A stretch of DNA of 64,000 bases, taken from assembly GCA_045576155.1 (NCBI GenBank), contig JAZNFV010000016.1, positions 20,654 through 84,653 of the forward strand. The letters are read 5' to 3'. The translations under genes and the position numbers were made by a program. Below, in pieces: positions 16,811 to 54,470 of this stretch. The DNA comes from Tidjanibacter sp. (GTDB lineage: Bacteria > Bacteroidota > Bacteroidia > Bacteroidales > Rikenellaceae). Below the pieces are notes generated by a model. It was not told the origin of the DNA. It ran no database searches and saw nothing but the letters and a program-made list of their open reading frames with translations. How positions within the stretch are numbered: the first letter of the stretch is position 1; each line of letters opens with the position of its first letter.

Positions 16811-17092
16811 TTGGCTGTTAGCTGTTGGCTGTTGGTCGGGAGGGAGGGAGGTTTGGGAATTTAGGGAGGTTAGGAAATAGGGCCTATAAGGCCTATAAGG
16901 CCTATAAGGCCCATAAGGCCTGTAAGCCCTATAACCCTTGCTACCCCTGTGACCCCTATAACCCCTGTTACCCCTGTTACCCCTGTTACCCCTGCCACAA
17001 AAAAAACGCGGGTATCTTTTTTAATACCCGCGTTTTATATTTGCCTTAGGTCGTTAGACGTTAGACGTTAGACCCACAGCCAGAAGGCTGTG
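16811..17092. repeat. Modular intergenic hairpin-minisatellite element, copy 1
   Basis: 7-mer ctgttRg, ttaggga-type 9-mers, (ggcctataa)n, (cccctgtta)n, core aaaacgcgggtat-ctttttta-atacccgcgtttt (17003-17036), (gacgtta)n, cacagc-cagaag-gctgtg. Confidence 0.9.
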
Positions 17093-25473: not shown

Positions 25474-27786
25474 TTACTCCCTTACATATATACGTTTTAC
25501 GCGCGTGGATATGGAGGTCATAATCTCGTAGGGGATTGTACCCAGCAGCGAGGCCATCTCTTCGACACTCCTGCCTTCGCCACCGAAAATCACAACCTCG
25601 TCGCCCTCCTCGCAGGCAATATCGGTCACATCAACCATACAGCTATCCATACACACTCTGCCGAGTATGGGGGCATCGTAGCCACCCACCTTTACGGCCC
25701 AAGCACCCTCGCCAAGTCGGCGGTCGAGTCCGTCGGCATAGCCAATGGGGATGGTGGCCACCTTTGTAGGGCGCGAGATGACACCTCGGCGGCCATAGCC
25801 TACCGTTTCGCCCACGCCAAGCTCTTTGATTTGCACAATGCGTGTGGATAGTTTCGCAATGGGTCTTACACCCTCGCCAACACCATAGAGTCCAATACCA
25901 AGTCGGCACATTTCATAGGTCGAAGAGGCAAAATACTCCATACCGGCCGTATTGTTTATATGGCGCAAGGGCTTATAGGGCAGCGAGGCCATAATAGCCT
26001 CCGACACCTCGGCAAAGCACCTCTGTTGTTGCTCCACAAAGGCTCTCTCCTCGGGCATATCGGCAGTGGCAAAGTGGGAGAAAATGCTCCTCACGGTAAG
26101 CACCCCTTTGAGTGTCGCCAAGCGCTCGCAGAGCCACTCCACATCGCCCATCGTAAATCCCAAGCGGTGCATACCGCTATCTACTTTCAGATGAATGGGA
26201 TAGTCGCTCTCGCCTGCGCTCTCCACCGCTGCCGCAAAAGCCTCCAACGAAGAGCGGTTGTAAATCTCGGGTTCGAGGCGATAGGAGGTCATCAGCGCAA
26301 AGCTATCGGCATCGGCATTGAGCACCACAATAGGCATAGTTATACCCTTCTGGCGGAGTGTCACACCCTCGTCGGCAAAGGCTACGGCCAAATAATCCAC
26401 ACCCTCGTGTTGGAGTGTGGCGGCAATCTCGTAGTCGCCGTGACCATAGCTCGAAGCCTTCACCATAGCCATCAGTCGTGTGCCCTGAGTGAGCCTCTGG
26501 CGGTAGTGGTTGAGGTTGGCAACCATAGTCGATAGGTTCACTTCCAACACCGTTGTATGGCACTTACGCGAGAGGGAGTGGACAATCCTATCGAAGCCCG
26601 ACATTGGGCCTCCCTTGACAAGTATGGCCGAGTTCTCAAACCTATCCTGAGTGAGCACTTTCAGAAATTCGTCGGTGGAGCTATAAAACTCGTCGGTGTC
26701 GGCAAAATAATGTTTGTGGGCCGCAATGAATCGTCCCACACCAATGGTCAAATCAACCCCTGCGGCCTCCACCGCGCGGGCAATGCGGGCATAGACCTCC
26801 TCGTCGGGCAGGGCACTGTAAAGCATATCGGAGAGAATAACCACCCTACGTCGGCCACCCGCCACCTCGCCCAGCGAGTCGAGCGCTATGGTCAGAGAGT
26901 TGATGTCCGAATTGTGCGTGTCGCTCAGCACCACCGAGCGACCCAACCCCTCCGAAAGAGCCAAGCGCAACCTCACAGGCTCCATATCGGCCAGACGCTC
27001 CTCCACCTCGGTGCGGTTGTAGCCCAGCAGGTCGTAGAGTTCGCCCACCATAGCTCGCATACTATCCACCCCACGCTTCGACTTAACGGCCGCCACCGCC
27101 TCGGTAATATAGTGATTGGAGGCGTTGTAGATGACGTGGCGCGTGCGGGCAAAGAGTATGGCCTTCTCGGCAGCCTTATGGCTACGGTCGATGAAGTTCT
27201 CGTCGTGCTGCTCTTCGAGTGCTGTAAAGATTCCCACATCGGGCCTGATGATTGCCTCCAAGCGAGCCATCTCGTCGGGGCGCGATATGCCTGCCTCAAT
27301 GACGGCTATATCCTCGTCGCCCTCCATCATCAAGAGCGAGAGGGCCACTCCAAGCTGTGAGTTGTAGCTGCGAGGCGAGCGAAAGACCTTCACACCCTCG
27401 GGAGCTGCCTCGGCTATCCACTCCTTCACAGCCGTCTTACCAATAGAGCCGGTGATGGCCACCATAACTCCGTCGAAGTGGCTGCGGTAGTTGGCTGCGA
27501 GCTTCTGCAACGCCCTAAGAGAGCGCCCAACAACCACAAATCCCGCCTCGGGATAGGCGCTCCAATCCATCTGTCGCTCAACCATAAACGCCCTAACGCC
27601 CCTACGATAGAGGTCGCCAATAAAGTTGTGGCCGTCGTGGTTGATGCCGGCAATAGCCACAAACAAGGGGGCACTATCGGTGGCAAAGCTGTGGCGTGAG
27701 TCGGTCATCACACTCCTCACAACCACATCCTCGCCATAGTGTTGGCCTCCAACAATGGTGGATACATCCGAAAGTCTATACTTCAT
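25474..27786 (-). CDS. alr: MurF-like domain fused to alanine racemase
   Basis: GSIGKT, SPRSYNSQLG, EAGIS (MurF part); AMVKASSYGHG PLP-lysine, HLKVDSGMHRLG, GRVCMD, YEIMTSI (Alr part). Confidence 0.93.
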   Translation of the reverse strand: MKYRLSDVSTIVGGQHYGEDVVVRSVMTDSRHSFATDSAPLFVAIAGINHDGHNFIGDLYRRGVRAFMVERQMDWSAYPEAGFVVVGRSLRALQKLAANYRSHFDGVMVAITGSIGKTAVKEWIAEAAPEGVKVFRSPRSYNSQLGVALSLLMMEGDEDIAVIEAGISRPDEMARLEAIIRPDVGIFTALEEQHDENFIDRSHKAAEKAILFARTRHVIYNASNHYITEAVAAVKSKRGVDSMRAMVGELYDLLGYNRTEVEERLADMEPVRLRLALSEGLGRSVVLSDTHNSDINSLTIALDSLGEVAGGRRRVVILSDMLYSALPDEEVYARIARAVEAAGVDLTIGVGRFIAAHKHYFADTDEFYSSTDEFLKVLTQDRFENSAILVKGGPMSGFDRIVHSLSRKCHTTVLEVNLSTMVANLNHYRQRLTQGTRLMAMVKASSYGHGDYEIAATLQHEGVDYLAVAFADEGVTLRQKGITMPIVVLNADADSFALMTSYRLEPEIYNRSSLEAFAAAVESAGESDYPIHLKVDSGMHRLGFTMGDVEWLCERLATLKGVLTVRSIFSHFATADMPEERAFVEQQQRCFAEVSEAIMASLPYKPLRHINNTAGMEYFASSTYEMCRLGIGLYGVGEGVRPIAKLSTRIVQIKELGVGETVGYGRRGVISRPTKVATIPIGYADGLDRRLGEGAWAVKVGGYDAPILGRVCMDSCMVDVTDIACEEGDEVVIFGGEGRSVEEMASLLGTIPYEIMTSISTRVKRIYVRE

Positions 27787-27800
27787 AACTTTATACTTTT

Positions 27801-28090
27801 AGTCTAACGTCTAACGTCAAACGTCTAACGACCTAAGGCAACAAACTCTCAACCCAAACTTGGGTATCTTTTTTAATACCCAAGTGTTTTTTTGGAGGGC
27901 GCTGAGAGGACTGAGAGGACTGAGAAGTCCCAGTGAACCCAGTGAACCCAGTGAACCGGTCTTAGGGGTCTCAGGGGTCTCAGGGGTTTCAGGGGTCTCA
28001 GGGGTCTTAGGGGTCTTAGGGGCTTTAAGGGCTTTAAGGCACTAAATTCCCTAAACTCTCTAAATTCCCTAAGCTCCCTAAACCACTTAG
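27801..28090. repeat. Modular hairpin-minisatellite element, copy 2 (modules largely inverted)
   Basis: (tctaacg)n, core acttgggtat-ctttttta-atacccaagt (27858-27885), (ctgagagga)n, (cccagtgaa)3, (ggggtctYa)n, (gggctttaa)2, ttccctaaa-type units. Confidence 0.85.
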
Positions 28091-34474: not shown

Positions 34475-36964
34475 ATGGATAATACGAAACTCGAAATAAA
34501 ACTCGGCTTTGAACGCATACGCCGTCAGGTGGCCGAACTATGCTCCACCCCCTCGGCTAAGGAGTTGGTGGGTCAGATGGACTTCTCCACCTCGGCCAAA
34601 GAGGTAGAGTGGCGACAGAGTGTGGCCGAAGAGGTTAGGCTGGCGTTGCTTACCGAGCCACAGTTTCCTAAGGGGGAGATAGTGGAATTTAGCATTGTGG
34701 TGGCAAAACTCGCTGCACAAGGCTCTTTTCTGGAAGCCGACGAATTGTTACTTCTGAGCGGAGGTCTGAAAGGCGTTGGCGAGGCCACACGAATGTTTGT
34801 GGCAGCCCGCGAGCGCTACCCTCTTATGGCCTCCGAATCAGAGAAAGTTGAGTCGTTTCCCGACATTGTGAGCCACATCGACACACTCATCGACCGTCAC
34901 GGCGAGGTGAGGGATAGTGCCTCGGCAGAGCTGTACGAGATACGTCGCTCCATACGCGCCCACGAGGGTCAGGCCGCCAAGAGGTTGCAGGCCGTACTGG
35001 CTGCCGCAATCAAGGAGGGCATTGTGGAGGAGGGTGCGTCGCTCTCCATAAGGGATGGTCGCAGTGTCATACCCGTTGCTGCGGCCAACAAACGCAAGCT
35101 CCGAGGTTTTGTCCACGACGAGTCGGCCACAGGTAAGACGGTCTATATTGAGCCTGTGGAGGTGGTGGAGATAAACAACGCACTGAAAGAGTTGGAGTAT
35201 GCCGAGCGCAGGGAGATTATTCGCCTGCTGACAGAGTTTACCGAGAACATACGCCCCTATGGCAAACAGATGGCCGAGAGCCGTCGCTACCTTACCGGCT
35301 TCGACTTCCTCCGAGCCAAAGCTCGCTGGGCCGTAGCCAATGGTGCATACAAACCCATACTCTCCGACGAGGGCACTCTGCGACTCGTGGAGGCCCGTCA
35401 CCCACTGCTCCAACAGAGTCACGCCAAGGAGAAGAAAGAGGTAGTGCCACTGGATTTGCGCCTCAATGGAGGCCGTCGCATATTGGTCATCTCGGGCCCT
35501 AATGCGGGAGGTAAGTCGGTATGTCTGAAAACGGTAGGACTACTGCAATATATGTTTCAGTGTGGTCTTGCCATACCTGCTGGCGGACTTAGCGAGTTGC
35601 CCATTTTCGAGCGCATCTTCATAGACATTGGCGACCAACAGAGCATCGAGAACGACCTCTCGACCTACTCGTCACACCTGACGAATATGAAGGAGATGCT
35701 CGCCGGCGCATCCCCCTCGACCCTAATCCTCATCGACGAGTTTGGCGGTGGCACAGAGCCAACCATAGGTGGAGCTATTGCCGAGGCTATGCTCGAAAGG
35801 TTTGTGGAGTCGGGCACTTACGGAATTGTCACAACCCACTACACCAACATAAAGTATTTCGCCTCCAACCACCAAGGTGTGGCCAACGGAGCAATGCTCT
35901 TCGATGTGCAGAACATACGCCCACTGTTCCGACTGGAAATGGGCGAGCCGGGAAGCTCGTTTGCCATTGAGATTGCACGCAAGATTGGACTTCCCGAACA
36001 GATTATCCGCAGCGCCTCCGAGAAGGTCGGCACAGAGGTTATGAGCCTCGAACGTCAGTTGCGCGAGGTGGCCCGCAGTCGCAACTACTGGGAGCAGAAG
36101 CGCGAGCGCATACGCATAGCCGATAGGCGTGTGGAGGAGATGGAGAGCGAGTATGCAGCCCGCTTGGCAGGGCTTAAAGAGGAGCGTGCGGCCATCATCC
36201 GTCAGGCCAAAGAGGATGCACGCGAAATACTCGACCAAACAAACCGCACGATTGAGAATACGGTGCGTGTGATACGCGAGTCGCAGGCCGAAAAGGAGAC
36301 CACAAGGCTTGCCCGTCGTGAGCTGGAATCGCTCAGAGAGAGGGTTGAGAGCGATGTCGATTACCTCTCGGCCGAGAGCGAGAAGGTGGCCCGCGAGATG
36401 GAGAAGATTGAACGTCGTCGCCAGAAGCGTGCCGAGCGTAAGGCCCAGCGTGGCGAGGTGGATAGTGCGCCCAAGACCGAGCCAGAGCCGGTGGTACTAC
36501 CCATAGTTGTGGGTGCAAAGGTGCGCATCGTCGGACAAGAGGGCGTGGGCGAGGTTCTATCGCTCAAAGGAAAGAAGGCCACCGTAGCCATAGGTCAGAT
36601 TACCACCACCATCGCCATCGACCGCTTGGAGGCCATAAGCCAAAACGAATACAAGAAACAGATGCGCCCAACCTCAGCCCGCACCGTTGTGAGTGTGGAT
36701 ATTTCGAGTCGCAAGCTCGCCTTCAAGGACAATATCGACATTAGAGGTATGAGGGCCGGTGAGGCTATGGAGGTGGTGCAAGACTTCATCGACGACGCCA
36801 TAATGGTGGGCATAGGCACTGTGACCATTCTGCACGGCAAAGGCACAGGTGCGCTCAAAGAGGAGGTACGACGCTACCTGCGCTACATACCACAAGTGGC
36901 CTCCGCCACCGACGACCACCCCGACCGAGGTGGTGCAGGCATTACCGTCGTAAAGTTCAAATAG
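34475..36964 (+). CDS. mutS2: Endonuclease MutS2 (Smr domain)
   Basis: SGPNAGGKS, LIDEFGGGTEP, TTHY, IDIRGM...LHGKGTG. Confidence 0.95.
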   Translation: MDNTKLEIKLGFERIRRQVAELCSTPSAKELVGQMDFSTSAKEVEWRQSVAEEVRLALLTEPQFPKGEIVEFSIVVAKLAAQGSFLEADELLLLSGGLKGVGEATRMFVAARERYPLMASESEKVESFPDIVSHIDTLIDRHGEVRDSASAELYEIRRSIRAHEGQAAKRLQAVLAAAIKEGIVEEGASLSIRDGRSVIPVAAANKRKLRGFVHDESATGKTVYIEPVEVVEINNALKELEYAERREIIRLLTEFTENIRPYGKQMAESRRYLTGFDFLRAKARWAVANGAYKPILSDEGTLRLVEARHPLLQQSHAKEKKEVVPLDLRLNGGRRILVISGPNAGGKSVCLKTVGLLQYMFQCGLAIPAGGLSELPIFERIFIDIGDQQSIENDLSTYSSHLTNMKEMLAGASPSTLILIDEFGGGTEPTIGGAIAEAMLERFVESGTYGIVTTHYTNIKYFASNHQGVANGAMLFDVQNIRPLFRLEMGEPGSSFAIEIARKIGLPEQIIRSASEKVGTEVMSLERQLREVARSRNYWEQKRERIRIADRRVEEMESEYAARLAGLKEERAAIIRQAKEDAREILDQTNRTIENTVRVIRESQAEKETTRLARRELESLRERVESDVDYLSAESEKVAREMEKIERRRQKRAERKAQRGEVDSAPKTEPEPVVLPIVVGAKVRIVGQEGVGEVLSLKGKKATVAIGQITTTIAIDRLEAISQNEYKKQMRPTSARTVVSVDISSRKLAFKDNIDIRGMRAGEAMEVVQDFIDDAIMVGIGTVTILHGKGTGALKEEVRRYLRYIPQVASATDDHPDRGGAGITVVKFK

Positions 36965-37186
36965 CTGTTGGCCAGTTGGCCAGTTGAGGGTTATTAGGGA
37001 ACTTAGGGAGTTTAGGGAGTGGCCTATAAGCCCTATAAGCCCTATAAGCCCTATAAGCCCCATAGGCCCCATAGGCCCTATGCTACCCTTGCTACCCCTG
37101 ATACCCTTGTAACCCCTGTAAAAAAAACGCGGGTATCATTTTCGATACCCGCGTTTTATATTAGCCTTAGACGTTAGACGTTAGAC
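36965..37186. repeat. Modular hairpin-minisatellite element, copy 3
   Basis: (ccagttg)n, ttagggagt units, (gccctataa)n, cccctg units, core aaaacgcgggtatc-attttc-gatacccgcgtttt (37124-37157), (gacgtta)n. Confidence 0.9.
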
Positions 37187-40394: not shown

Positions 40395-40600
40395 CTCTCA
40401 ACTAAAAACGCGGGTATTAAAAAATGATACCCGCGTTTTTTAATTGAGAATTGAGGGTTGAGGGGTGCGAGGGAATTTAAGGAATTTAGGGAGGTTAGGG
40501 AATAGGGCCTATAAGCCCTATGCTACCCCTGTGAACCCTGTTACCCCTGCTACCCCTGCCACCCCCACCATTTTTTGCCTTAGGGCCTTTGACGTTAGAC
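40395..40600. repeat. Modular hairpin-minisatellite element, copy 4 (core placed first, loop inverted)
   Basis: aaaaacgcgggtat-taaaaaatg-atacccgcgttttt (40404-40440), then ttgagRR 7-mers, ttaggga, ggcctataa, cccctg units, gccttagg..gacgttagac. Confidence 0.88.
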
Positions 40601-40601
40601 T

Positions 40602-40641
40602 AAAAAAAAGACCGAGAAATCCACGTCTGAATCTCTCGGTC
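40602..40641 (-). terminator. Intrinsic terminator of rplS
   Basis: Minus strand gaccgaga-loop-tctcggtc-T8. Confidence 0.75.
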
Positions 40642-40666
40642 ATTCTTTCGGTAAGCAAAGGATTGA

Positions 40667-41110: not shown

Positions 41111-41275
41111 GGCTGCAAAGATACATATAAAATTCAAAATTCAAAATTCAAAATTCAAAATTGATTCTATTTTTGCAACTCCAAAACATCTAACTTGCGG
41201 TAGGACTGCACATTAACCCCCGAAAATCGCACTCAAATTTTTCAACTACTTTGAGCCTTTCAGTGCTAAGAAAGG

Positions 41276-47979: not shown

Positions 47980-48154
47980 AGACGCCCTTGTAACCCTTGT
48001 AACCCCTGCTACCCCTGTAAAAAAACGCGGGTATCTTTTTTAATACCCGCGTTTTTTATAGGGCTTATAAGCCACTCCTTAAATTCCCTACATTCCCTAA
48101 CCTCTCTAAATTCCCTAATCTCCCTCTTAATTTTCAATTTTCCATTTTCAATTC
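47980..48154. repeat. Modular hairpin-minisatellite element, copy 5
   Basis: (cccttgtaa)n, core aaaaaacgcgggtat-ctttttta-atacccgcgtttttt (48020-48057), then inverted gggcttataa, ttccctaaa and ttcaatt modules. Confidence 0.9.
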
Positions 48155-49666
48155 TCAATTCTCTTTTTTCTCTATCCAGCGGCCGTCGGCTTTGATGAGG
48201 TCGATGAGGTGGTCGATAGCCTCCTCTTGGGGAATATTGCGCTCAACGAGCGTCTTGCCTCGGTAGAGCGATATGCGGTTGGGCAGGCCGCCCACATAGC
48301 CGTAGTCGGCATCGGCCATCTCGCCTGGGCCATTGACTATACAGCCCATAACGCCAATCTTCAAGCCAACGAGGTGGTCGGTGCGCTCTTTTATGGCTGC
48401 CAAAGTGGTTTCGATGTCGTAGAGGGTGCGGCCACACGAGGGGCAAGCTATATATTCGGTGCGCGAGATGCGTACTCGGGCGGCTTGGAGTATGATGAGG
48501 GCTATCTCGTTGCGCTCCTCCTCGGAGAAGTGGGGGTTGTCGATGCGTATGCCGTCGGCCAGCGAGTCAATCATCATCACACCGAAGTCGGCAGCAGCCT
48601 CAATAGCAAACTGCTCTTTGTTGGCGGTGGTGTAGCGACGATGGAGGATGATGGGCTTGGTGTGACCTCGGCCCACAATTTTGCTCCTCCACTCTTGCAC
48701 CGGGTGGGCGCTGGTGGCCTCAATTAGGATGTAGTCGTCGGGGTTGCTTACCTCACTCCACAGCACTGGTGTACCATAGGGGCGCGGGGTGTACTGGTAG
48801 GCGGAGAAATCCTCCCAGCCGACCTCGTCGAAATGCTCCTCGGGGCGACCTGTAAAGTGGGCCACAAGTTGCTGAGCGGCAGGAATCTCCAACTCGGGAG
48901 CTTCGGTGAGTGACACCCTCACAGTGTCGCCAATGCCGTCGGCCAGCAGTGCGCCAATGCCCACAGCCGACTTTATACGGCCCTCTATGAGGTTGCCTGC
49001 CTCGGTCACACCGAGGTGGATGGGGTAGTCCATCGAGGCCTCGGCCATAGCCTTCGATAGTAGTCGGTAGGCATAGACCATCACGCGCACGTTGCTCGAT
49101 TTGAGCGATACAACAACGTTGTGGAAATCAAGCTGACGGCAACGCTCCAAAAACTCCATTGCCGAGGCGGCCATACCCTCGGGGGTGTCGCCATAGATGT
49201 CGAAGATCTTTTTGGCCAGCGAGCCGTGATTGACACCAATACGCAGAGCCACACCACGCTTGCGACACAGCTCCACAAGCTCCTCAAATCGGCCTCCTCG
49301 GTCGTTGTAGTTGCCGGGGTTGATGCGCACCTTGTCTGCTGTGGTGGCAGCAACGGCGGCCACCGCAGGCACAAAGTGAACGTCGGCCACAAGTGCTACA
49401 TCGGGCCACTTCTGGCGCACAGCTTCGCCTATGGGGCCTAAGGCCAGAGCCTCTTTCTCGTCGCGCGTGGTGAGCCTCACAAGGCGGCCTCCTGCCTCGG
49501 CAATCTGGTCGATTTGTTTGACGCAAGCCTCCACATCGTGGGTGGTGGTGTTGGTCATTGTTTGTACCACAATGGGGGCTGAGCCACCAATGGTGTGGCT
49601 ACCCACTTTCACCTCTCGGGTGGGGCGTCGGGTGTAGGATGTGAGCGAAAAGCAGTAGTGTTTCAT
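48155..49666 (-). CDS. ispG: (E)-4-hydroxy-3-methylbut-2-enyl-diphosphate synthase
   Basis: VQTMTNT, VADVHF, RINPGN, RIGVNHGSL, HLGVTEAG, CPSCGRT, GCIVNGPGE. Confidence 0.97.
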   Translation of the reverse strand: MKHYCFSLTSYTRRPTREVKVGSHTIGGSAPIVVQTMTNTTTHDVEACVKQIDQIAEAGGRLVRLTTRDEKEALALGPIGEAVRQKWPDVALVADVHFVPAVAAVAATTADKVRINPGNYNDRGGRFEELVELCRKRGVALRIGVNHGSLAKKIFDIYGDTPEGMAASAMEFLERCRQLDFHNVVVSLKSSNVRVMVYAYRLLSKAMAEASMDYPIHLGVTEAGNLIEGRIKSAVGIGALLADGIGDTVRVSLTEAPELEIPAAQQLVAHFTGRPEEHFDEVGWEDFSAYQYTPRPYGTPVLWSEVSNPDDYILIEATSAHPVQEWRSKIVGRGHTKPIILHRRYTTANKEQFAIEAAADFGVMMIDSLADGIRIDNPHFSEEERNEIALIILQAARVRISRTEYIACPSCGRTLYDIETTLAAIKERTDHLVGLKIGVMGCIVNGPGEMADADYGYVGGLPNRISLYRGKTLVERNIPQEEAIDHLIDLIKADGRWIEKKEN

Positions 49667-49687
49667 TATTTTTCCTCCAATTTTAGG

Positions 49688-49717
49688 CAAATATACGGCG
49701 AATTTACGTTATCTTTG
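49688..49717. promoter_or_regulatory. Back-to-back -7 elements for divergent ispG and recG
   Basis: caaatata (49688-95, = TATATTTG on -) and tatctttg (49710-17 on +). Confidence 0.6.
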
Positions 49718-53634: not shown

Positions 53635-53635
53635 T

Positions 53636-54314
53636 CCGAGCGCATCTTGCGGGCGACTACTGCGTTGCCCTACGATAAACCACCTCCTCATTTACGCTTA
53701 GTAAACTCGGAGGTGGTTTTCTTGTGCGCCTTGTATTCATCCCGCAATATGCACTCGTTTCGAGCGCGCCTTGTGGGCGTTTTTCGTACCAAACTTGGAT
53801 AGGTGGCATCCTCATTTACGTTCAGTAAACTGCGGAGCCACCTTCTTGTTTGGCACGAAACTCGCCTCACAAATCGCACTCGACCCTCTCCCGACCCAAT
53901 GGGTTGCAGTTTCCTCATCTTCGCAAGCCTTGCACTCGCAGGACAAGTCCTGTTTTGTGATGGCGCAGGACAGACCTCACCCCTGCTCCACAACCACTCC
54001 TCCCCTGACAGGGGAGGAGTGGTTGTGGAGCGAAATACGCCCTTGTGACCCTTGTAACCCTTGTAACCCTTGTAACCCTTGTGACCCCTGCTACCCCTGT
54101 AAAAAACTCGGGTATCTTTTTTAATACCCGAGTTTTATTAAGCCTTAGGTCTTTCGACGTTGGACCTTAGACGTTGGACACACAGCCGTAACCGAGTGCA
54201 TCTTGCGGGATGAATACAAGGCGCACAAGAAAATCCCCTCCGAGTTTACTAAGCGTAAATGAGGAGGGGATTTATCGCAGGGCAACGCAGTAGTCGCCCG
54301 CAAGATGCGCTCGG
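53636..54314. repeat. MITE-like / REP-doublet element bounded by a 122-bp inverted repeat
   Basis: 53636-53757 versus the reverse complement of 54193-54314: 116/122 identical by hand alignment; no credible internal coding capacity. Confidence 0.85.
54036..54190. repeat. Modular hairpin-minisatellite element, copy 6 (nested in the inverted repeat)
   Basis: (cccttgtaa)n, core aaaactcgggtat-ctttttta-atacccgagtttt (54103-54136), gccttagg..gacgttg, cacagcc. Confidence 0.88.
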
Positions 54315-54470
54315 GGCAAAATTCGGGGTGGAGCTATCCTCACAACAACCCCACCCCTCCCTTCATCAACTACACAAAAGCCTTCTGAAAAGCTTTTATC
54401 GGCGGTCTTTCGCCCTCGCACAAAGGGGATTCGAGGGGAAAGCCTATATCGGTTGCGCCAGCTCTGGGCG

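Follow-up and report, generated by a model that had tools for sequence, protein, structure and literature searches.

The stretch of DNA discussed here (the window) comprises 64,000 nucleotides, positions 20654-84653 of contig C16 in a 1.90-Mb, 42-contig metagenome-assembled genome (MAG) of an uncultured gut Tidjanibacter (Rikenellaceae, Bacteroidales). It carries six copies of a modular intergenic repeat, here called the cassette, which combines a short hairpin with tandem arrays of 7-mers and 9-mers. A first-pass annotation of the window had placed these copies at 16.8, 27.8, 37.0, 40.4, 48.0 and 54.0 kb, and all six are present at those places. Each contains the core GGGTAT-loop-ATACCC together with the same kinds of arrays. 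Tandem Repeats Finder (TRF) detected the 7-mer and 9-mer arrays at 16811-17073, 27802-28083, 36967-37186, 40470-40565, 47985-48170 and 54040-54102. At a TRF score of at least 40 the window holds 7 period-7 and 15 period-9 arrays, compared with no period-7 array and a single period-9 array across 20 third-order Markov simulations of the window; the arrays are far above chance. All six copies lie 3' of a stop codon and four of them between convergent genes, as had been annotated and as our own gene calls, adequate inside the window when checked against Pfam, agree. The convergent spacers are 36965-37186, 40395-40666, 47980-48154 and 53635-54470, and the remaining two copies lie between tandem minus-strand genes.

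Copy 1 displays the anatomy of the cassette. On the + strand it begins with a heptamer array of class S (ctgttRg x3.6, 16811-16835; TRF and sequence), followed by the T arm, a run of degenerate TTAGGGANN 9-mers (ttagggaNN) with the G-run on the top strand (16844-16880; sequence), whose class is represented by 148 arrays across the genome. The Y arm and then the P arm follow on the same strand (16877-16995; TRF and sequence), with GGCCTATAA drifting to CCCCTGTTA and the G-run on the bottom strand. TRF reports two arrays here, 16877-16934 and 16919-16995, and the 9-nt phase is unbroken, (ggcctataa)x6 shading in phase into (cccctgtta)x8. The hairpin (16999-17036, not assigned to a strand; RNA fold) consists of an A-tract, the stem CGCGGGTAT, an 8-nt loop, the stem ATACCCGCG and a T-tract. 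Its sequence is aaaaaaaacgcGGGTATcttttttaATACCCgcgtttt, and its RNA is predicted to fold with -20.3 kcal/mol on the + strand and -23.7 on the - strand (z about -6 to -7). The linker atatttgccttaggtc, ending in GCCTTAGGTC, lies between the hairpin and (gttagac)x3, and linker and D block (GTTAGAC x3) together occupy 17037-17073 on the + strand (sequence, TRF and an alignment of ~60 copies). The small hairpin cacagcc-agaa-ggctgtg at 17074-17092 (no strand assigned; copy-number track) is a distinct low-copy repeat module that is often found 3' of D.

Arrays were sorted by unit and strand into module classes, and the cassettes obey a strict polar syntax. Read 5' to 3', a cassette is composed of (TTGARAA)n, (TTAGGGANN)n, (GSCCTATAA / GCCCTTAAA / CCCYTGTAA)n, the hairpin and GCCTTAGGTC(GTTAGAC)4. 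In module letters, L (TTGARAA) is followed by an optional S, by T (TTAGGGANN) and by Y (GSCCTATAA), then either by P (CCCYTGTAA) with the hairpin H or by K (GCCCTTAAA), and last by D (GTTAGAC). The first-pass annotation had described module order and orientation as shuffled between copies, a description that does not survive the genome-wide count. Among the 155 clusters with at least three kinds of module, 117 keep one order, where 14.4 would be expected from shuffling, and module orientation is consistent in 140. Copies 1, 2 (which is inverted), 3, 4 and 6 of the window fit the syntax, and copy 5 is the sole exception.

The 9-mers, listed earlier as separate modules, are all variants of one superfamily, WAGGGNNTT, on opposite strands. 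Their runs of three to four G residues are spaced 9 nt apart, and the strand that carries them is the top one in the T arm and the bottom one in the Y, K and P arms. Because the G-runs of the two arms lie on opposite strands, the arms can fold back on each other as an imperfect foldback. Cassettes of the K type, which have no hairpin, also give imperfect foldback folds, with z of -2.4 to -4.6 against shuffles. Coding tripeptide repeats were considered as a source of the 9-mers and rejected, as the arrays lie outside genes with hexamer support, contain stops in one frame per strand and occur in both orientations.

The right arm is conserved over ~60 copies as gagttttattaaGCCTTAGGTC-GTTAGAC-GTTTGAC-CTTAGAC-GTTAGAC, both in the order of the unit variants and in the non-repetitive linkers. 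Exactly four units are found in 130 of 197 D arrays, and four is also the mode for L arrays; the copy numbers of T, Y and P arrays differ from site to site. Independent local expansion is not supported as the origin of the gacgtta array, earlier described as a minisatellite: most often it is a set block of four heptads in which the unit variants keep their order. Since this order and the four-unit size are both conserved, the D block has been copied as a sequence and not amplified on site.

These observations bear on whether cassettes could be independent local simple-sequence repeats, produced by polymerase slippage at each terminator without any dispersed master sequence, an origin that has been proposed for the excess of heptamers in bacteria. 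The site-to-site variation of the T, Y and P copy numbers would fit such an origin, as would units unique to one copy (copy 2 has examples), and an excess of heptamers with a preference for four units is known elsewhere (PMC4692102). Yet dozens to 134 sites share their non-repetitive linkers, their hairpin and the succession of D variants. A strict order across unit types cannot arise independently at each site, so that local slippage is largely refuted, and we consider it very improbable.

The other copies in the window illustrate how the modules are combined. Copy 2 (27802-28083, - strand; TRF and sequence) consists, in inverted orientation, of a D block (27802-27830), a hairpin (27862-27881), variant 9-mer arrays, and K and T arrays. 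Its D block stops 15 nt upstream of the start codon (ATG) of a Mur-ligase/alanine-racemase gene, and at the copy 2 site in the sister species discussed below D and two arrays are kept and the hairpin is missing. The neighboring gene (25474-27786, - strand) is itself a single 770-aa frame in which Pfam identifies Mur-ligase domains and a complete alanine racemase. Copy 3 (36967-37186, + strand; TRF, sequence and Pfam) has the order S-T-Y-P-hairpin-D, with the hairpin at 37131-37150, and occupies the full spacer from the stop of mutS2 to the stop of a convergent 5'-nucleotidase gene. Copy 4 (40400-40602, + strand; TRF and sequence) has the hairpin first (40412-40432), then L-T-Y-P and a degenerate D, with no hairpin separating P from D. 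Copy 5 (47985-48170, no single strand; TRF and sequence) is composed of a P array, a hairpin (48029-48048) and, in inverted orientation, Y, T and L arrays. At 48155-48175 its L-type heptamer array takes in the final codons of ispG (GcpE domain, 48155-49690, - strand) and the stop, and the ispG reading frame apparently owes its end to the cassette.

Copy 6 (53985-54183, + strand; TRF and sequence) represents the short form X-P-H-D, which is very common genome-wide. It has an X hairpin (53985-54031), a P array, a hairpin (54110-54129) and a D block. The X module (CCTCCCCTGACATAGGGGAGG..., core CCTCCCCTGACATAGGGGAGGAGTGGTTGTGG) is a separate hairpin with ~85 copies, located directly upstream of most P arrays; its version in copy 6 forms a perfect palindrome of 23 bp. 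Two 125-nt arms (53636-53760 and 54190-54314) that are 94% complementary enclose copy 6 together with further repeat modules; each arm has its own internal stem, and the arms belong to a further repeat family of 5-20 copies. A solitary L-type heptamer array, AAAATTC x4.9, at 41129-41162 on the - strand (TRF; copy number >60) is a member of the same module kit. Open reading frames (ORFs) of 132 and 117 aa run through arrays at 36674-37072 (- strand) and 53771-54124 (+ strand), and are likely to be spurious automatic annotations.

The first-pass annotation predicted many copies beyond the window, and the genome has 134 hairpins (pattern GGGTAT-N4-14-ATACCC), 481 period-7 arrays and 708 period-9 arrays. 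A search for the core and modules over the whole genome thus did not end with a family of only a few copies. Periods 6, 8, 10 and 11 have fewer than 100 arrays each. Among the units, AGACGTT forms 148 arrays, CAATTTT / GAATTTT 125, AGGGAGTTT 61, ATAGGGCTT 60 and AAGGGCTTT 42, and the CCCYTGTAA group forms several dozen. Arrays and hairpins make up 402 clusters, 257 of them with at least two modules, for a total of 43 kb or 2.3% of the genome. By our gene calls the intergenic DNA amounts to 254 kb, of which 38% has at least one other genomic copy and 22% has at least 20. There are 47 clusters without an assigned intergenic region, mostly at contig ends. Cassettes thus interrupt the assembly, and there must be more of them than were counted. 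Contig C12 (136 kb) departs from the general density, with ~3 cassette clusters where ~30 would be expected; its GC skew is strongly positive. Recent acquisition, a special constraint on the region or mis-binning of the contig could account for this.

The hairpins are highly uniform. Nearly all of the 134 copies have an A-tract before the stem-loop and a T-tract after it, the stem is 10-12 bp long, and the loop is CTTTTTTA in 93 copies. The predicted RNA folds, on either strand, range from -14.4 to -23.7 kcal/mol with z of -3.4 to -6.8. The four stem pairs next to GGGTAT are ACTC/GAGT in 68 copies, ACGC/GCGT in 32 and ACTT/AAGT in 6. Full Watson-Crick pairing at these four positions is seen in 107 of 134 copies, and the three stem variants show compensation; either the fold has been selected, or both arms have been copied together. 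The hairpin has all the sequence features of a bidirectional intrinsic (Rho-independent) terminator, and it is predicted to act as one.

Genome-wide counts bear out what was first proposed from the window, that the family is intergenic, dispersed in high copy and located at the 3' ends of genes. Cassettes occupy 83 of 176 convergent intergenic regions (47%), 12-18% of tandem ones and 9% of divergent ones, and only 15 of the 402 clusters lie inside called genes. The D end faces a stop codon 164 times and a start codon 48 times.

Cassettes are oriented with respect to replication, whose direction is read here from GC skew; this is a new finding that the first-pass annotation missed. In 267 of 349 clusters the top strand (L to D, with D read as GTTAGAC) coincides with the C-rich strand. 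Each polar module class is biased by 73-77% (p 1e-6 to 1e-12), and the bias of the K class is reversed, in line with the syntax. Genes show only 56% on the inferred leading strand. In convergent regions the top strand is on the C-rich strand in 97 of 106 cases (91.5%). In tandem regions with leading-strand genes this is true of 75 of 94 (80%), and with lagging-strand genes of 42 of 74 (57%). The orientation bias is thus strongest where transcription has no net direction. At ~107-110 kb of contig C35 the GC skew changes from negative to positive, the genes diverge and cassette polarity changes from + to -. This region is a candidate replication origin. The dnaA gene was not found near the skew switch; a DnaA-like gene is located at C5:18626-20047.

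Related genomes provide a view of how the family varies. The MutS2 protein of the window is 97% identical to that of a Tidjanibacter sp. MAG from yak caecum and 77-84% identical to those of many ruminant-hindgut Tidjanibacter MAGs. With the pattern (TTAGGGANN)3, allowing up to two mismatches (a reversed-pattern control gave ~0), T arrays were found in 68 of 301 Rikenellaceae genomes and in 3 of 31 genera, with counts from 0 to >300. They are present in 32 of 47 Tidjanibacter genomes, in a subset of the ~2-Mb genomes of a second large genus (g31) and in a few genomes of a third genus. D arrays, (GTTAGAC)3-like, occur in low number in a few other Bacteroidales families, by terminators or gene ends and sometimes as inverted pairs, so D-like heptamer arrays are wider than the Rikenellaceae. 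In one such family (locus L052, G424:C10:23800-24450) an ordinary terminator hairpin comes after a tRNA gene, and (GTCTAAC)x6 immediately follows it; at another locus (L059, genome G630) inverted heptamer arrays occupy the entire spacer from stop to ATG.

The vocabulary of the arrays differs between species. The genomes G085 (~76% nucleotide identity) and G252 (another genus) have the same excess of period-7 and period-9 arrays, with vocabularies that differ from that of the source genome and layouts that are more palindromic. Inverted heptamer arrays are found at both cassette ends in related species. The GGGTAT hairpin is shared within Tidjanibacter, with the stem variant CGAG/CGCG in the source genome and its sister species (G188) and CGTG in G085. 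Cassettes are homogenised within species and different between species. In the spacer downstream of mutS2, one species has a plain, unique terminator, others have arrays in inverted arrangement, the 97% relative has the hairpin, L and D without the T, Y and P arrays, and the source genome has the full cassette. A comparison of 208 orthologous spacers with the sister species, in which the flanks are 86-95% identical, found sites where entire mosaic blocks are present or absent (680 versus 66 bp and 508 versus 93 bp), the filled and empty sites that had been proposed as a check. In the same comparison modules are replaced between conserved flanks, and the differences are module by module.

The polarity and the distribution together bear on whether the cassettes are polar chromosome signals or protein-binding arrays kept by selection, resembling FtsK-orienting polar sequences (KOPS), Chi sites or nucleoid-organising elements. 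Cassette polarity changes with GC skew, four heptads form the D block as a fixed unit, and D-like (NTTAGAC)n arrays stand at gene boundaries in other Bacteroidales families, all of which would suit a signal. A density of about one cassette per 5-7 kb also resembles that of Chi and KOPS. KOPS and Chi sites, though, are single 5-8-mers and not 200-bp cassettes. The distribution is patchy, with T arrays missing from 15 of the 47 congeners and from 28 of the family's 31 genera, vocabularies vary by species, and the palindromic cassettes of relatives have no net polarity. Contig C12 is almost free of cassettes over its 136 kb. On this evidence we regard selected polar signals as improbable.

The first-pass annotation reported that no transposase was evident, and this agrees with six-frame hidden Markov model (HMM) searches of the source genome, a 91% complete MAG, in which Y1_Tnp (PF01797), IS110 (Transposase_20), DDE_Tnp_1 and rve were absent. 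Control genomes were matched in every search. The proposed check for a co-occurring REP-associated tyrosine transposase (RAYT; REP, repetitive extragenic palindrome), TnpA(Y1) or reverse transcriptase gave none in the genome with the Y1_Tnp and RVT_1 HMMs. Multi-copy protein genes were also considered as hidden transposases, and no family with more than 2 copies exists in the genome. Within the genus, a single genome out of 47 carries Y1_Tnp, and it is without T arrays; several 99-100% complete genomes of the genus with >100 T-array matches lack it. A RAYT was rejected as the mobiliser, as its presence does not track the arrays across the genus. Because Y1 is absent from the source genome and from 46 of 47 genus genomes, the cassettes cannot be assigned to REP/RAYT or IS200/IS605 elements. 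The cassette also has no terminal inverted repeats in the source genome, as first described, since the 5' (TTGARAA)n and 3' (GTTAGAC)n are not complementary. No target-site duplication was seen at two filled-versus-empty sites compared with the sister species, where ~10% divergence and the arrays themselves blur the boundaries.

A classical non-autonomous element, such as a MITE (miniature inverted-repeat transposable element) or a REP or palindrome-associated transposable element (PATE), might still be mobilised in trans, the transposase either being absent from the MAG or belonging to an unknown family, with a single-strand (HUH) enzyme at the replication fork as a candidate. The orientation bias with replication is what single-strand transposition of the IS200/IS605 type produces, as Ton-Hoang and colleagues are said to have found in 2010. 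Such an element would also be in keeping with entire blocks present or absent at orthologous sites, with copy numbers from 0 to >300 among congeners and with highly uniform hairpins. The absence of Y1_Tnp from all genus genomes except one without T arrays argues the other way, as does the absence of RVT_1, IS110, DDE_Tnp_1, rve and any protein family above 2 copies. The L and D ends are not inverted repeats of each other, a target duplication is not visible at the partly blurred boundaries, and the sister species differ by module and not by whole element. We consider mobilisation in trans unlikely.

The reading that we favor, with somewhat better than even confidence, is that the cassettes are a non-autonomous mosaic repeat family with a predicted bidirectional terminator, spread by recombination and slippage and with an orientation linked to replication. 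It rests on what was observed of cassette anatomy and syntax, of copy number and position, on the lack of any known transposase, on module-wise turnover between the sister species and on the polarity with skew. The most likely role of the hairpin would be to terminate and insulate converging or successive transcripts and to shape their 3' ends, and the arms may add structure to these ends. Without any transposase, modules may be swapped and gained through gene conversion or homologous recombination at ectopic sites, with shared modules as anchors, and slippage could cause the arrays to grow and shrink. The cassettes would be tolerated in 3' intergenic space alone. Replication may set the orientation, either through a strand-specific single-stranded intermediate at the fork during acquisition or through selection for one orientation.

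Several points weigh against this reading. Recombination alone does not explain the first entry of a cassette at a naive site, nor does it explain the 91.5% orientation bias. The source genome is a MAG with 0.7% contamination, and insertion sequence (IS) elements are often lost in binning. The gene calls come from our own crude script combining ORFs with in-frame hexamers, the direction of replication was deduced solely from GC skew, and bidirectional termination at the hairpin is a prediction from sequence features. Tests in two relatives gave no skew bias: G085 has a weak, sign-changing skew (one contig) and units that are partly self-complementary, and the cassettes of G252 are palindromic. 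The polarity is thus established for the source genome alone.

A bolder proposal, which we hold to be possible and rather doubtful, is that intergenic DNA is built and spread without a transposase by a process coupled to replication and copied strand-specifically at the fork, or else that the cassettes are polar chromosome signals composed of repeat arrays. Fork copying might proceed through a single-stranded intermediate that anneals to the lagging-strand template or through hairpin-primed template switching, with growth as 7-mer and 9-mer arrays. If this were true, polar terminator cassettes would have been added by the hundred to a small IS-free genome, and their orientation would mark the replichores.

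Specialists would be surprised by the strict syntax, by the lack of a detected transposase in an IS-free 2-Mb genome and by the polarity linked to replication. Repeats amounting to 2-5% of the DNA are unexpected in a small, streamlined gut member of the Bacteroidales, and here they take up more than one fifth of the intergenic space. The cassettes also have practical consequences, as they break short-read assemblies and create spurious ORFs. They could be used as strain-typing markers or as compact bidirectional terminators in the engineering of Bacteroidales. The family offers a defined system for the old question of the origin, spread and use of repeats that resemble REP, bacterial interspersed mosaic elements (BIMEs) and short tandemly repeated repetitive (STRR) sequences.

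As the first-pass annotation had indicated, the family is not a recognised one, and nothing matching was found in Rfam, phage and plasmid records or the literature. The whole window had no Rfam match at gathering thresholds, and permissive E-values returned generic hairpins far below threshold. The X-P-H-D unit was unmatched in phage and plasmid collections. The repeat sequences were not found in the literature searched, which gave nothing on repeats in Tidjanibacter or Alistipes.

The likeness to enterobacterial BIMEs proposed at the outset is apt, since both are mosaics of a palindrome and motifs at gene 3' ends. Like the cassettes, BIME and REP sequences are high-copy, extragenic and mostly at gene 3' ends, they join a palindromic unit to short motifs under a syntax, and roles in termination and mRNA 3'-end stability have been proposed for them, as they are for the cassettes. 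A REP is defined as an imperfect palindrome of 20-40 bp, one end of which carries a conserved tetranucleotide, GTAG or CGTC (PMC3733652). In contrast, the cassette stem starts ACKC/GMGT and has flanking A- and T-tracts, and none of the 134 hairpins has a GTAG/CGTC head. Cassettes also differ from BIMEs in that the genome has no RAYT, the motifs are tandem 7-mer and 9-mer arrays and the polarity follows replication. The cassettes therefore fail two tests that define REP/RAYT systems, the tag and the cognate RAYT. PATE-like elements of the IS200/IS605 type share the fork orientation bias, whereas the Y1 enzyme and subterminal hairpins are absent here and the single conserved hairpin of the cassette is internal.

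Foldback (FB) transposons of Drosophila have arms of short inverted tandem repeats, and they are eukaryotic, kilobase-sized and transposase-dependent. The T arm facing the Y/K/P arm in the cassettes, and the D+...D- or T+...T- forms in related species, recall this layout; nothing points to shared descent. Closer in host is the BrickBuilt MITE of Porphyromonas gingivalis (Klein et al. 2015, PMC4596501), built on a single 23-nt unit with small inverted-repeat ends; it is present in 19 copies and shows promoter activity. BrickBuilt resembles the cassettes in its Bacteroidales host, its invariably intergenic location, the array held between 'leader' and 'tail' subunits and the limited host range. 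Cassettes differ in that they number in the hundreds, are made of 7-nt and 9-nt units of several types, lack inverted ends and have a core resembling a terminator.

The STRR heptamer repeats of Nostoc/Anabaena were reportedly described by Mazel and colleagues in 1990. Heptamer arrays of Xanthomonas (GGGAATC) and of Nostoc/Anabaena (STRR) are oriented and gene-adjacent, prefer four units and have no known function (Rehm et al. 2015, PMC4692102). The general class of oriented heptamer arrays beside genes is thus already published, which the first-pass annotation had missed. Both kinds of array are enriched in non-coding DNA, rare between divergent genes and near gene ends, and show the preference for four units that D and L show here; both vary in length and sequence among close relatives and are not associated with IS elements. 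STRR and GGGAATC arrays are of a single, G-rich type and have neither a syntax nor a shared hairpin, whereas a cassette links various 7-mer and 9-mer types in a set order, together with conserved linkers and a near-identical terminator hairpin. The GTTAGAC and TTGARAA heptamers have no G-runs, unlike the G-rich GGGNATC type that is able to form a G-quadruplex, and an orientation linked to replication is not reported for STRR/GGGAATC arrays. The cassettes are best filed as a real, abundant and previously undescribed family within the mosaic intergenic repeat and heptamer-array kinds.

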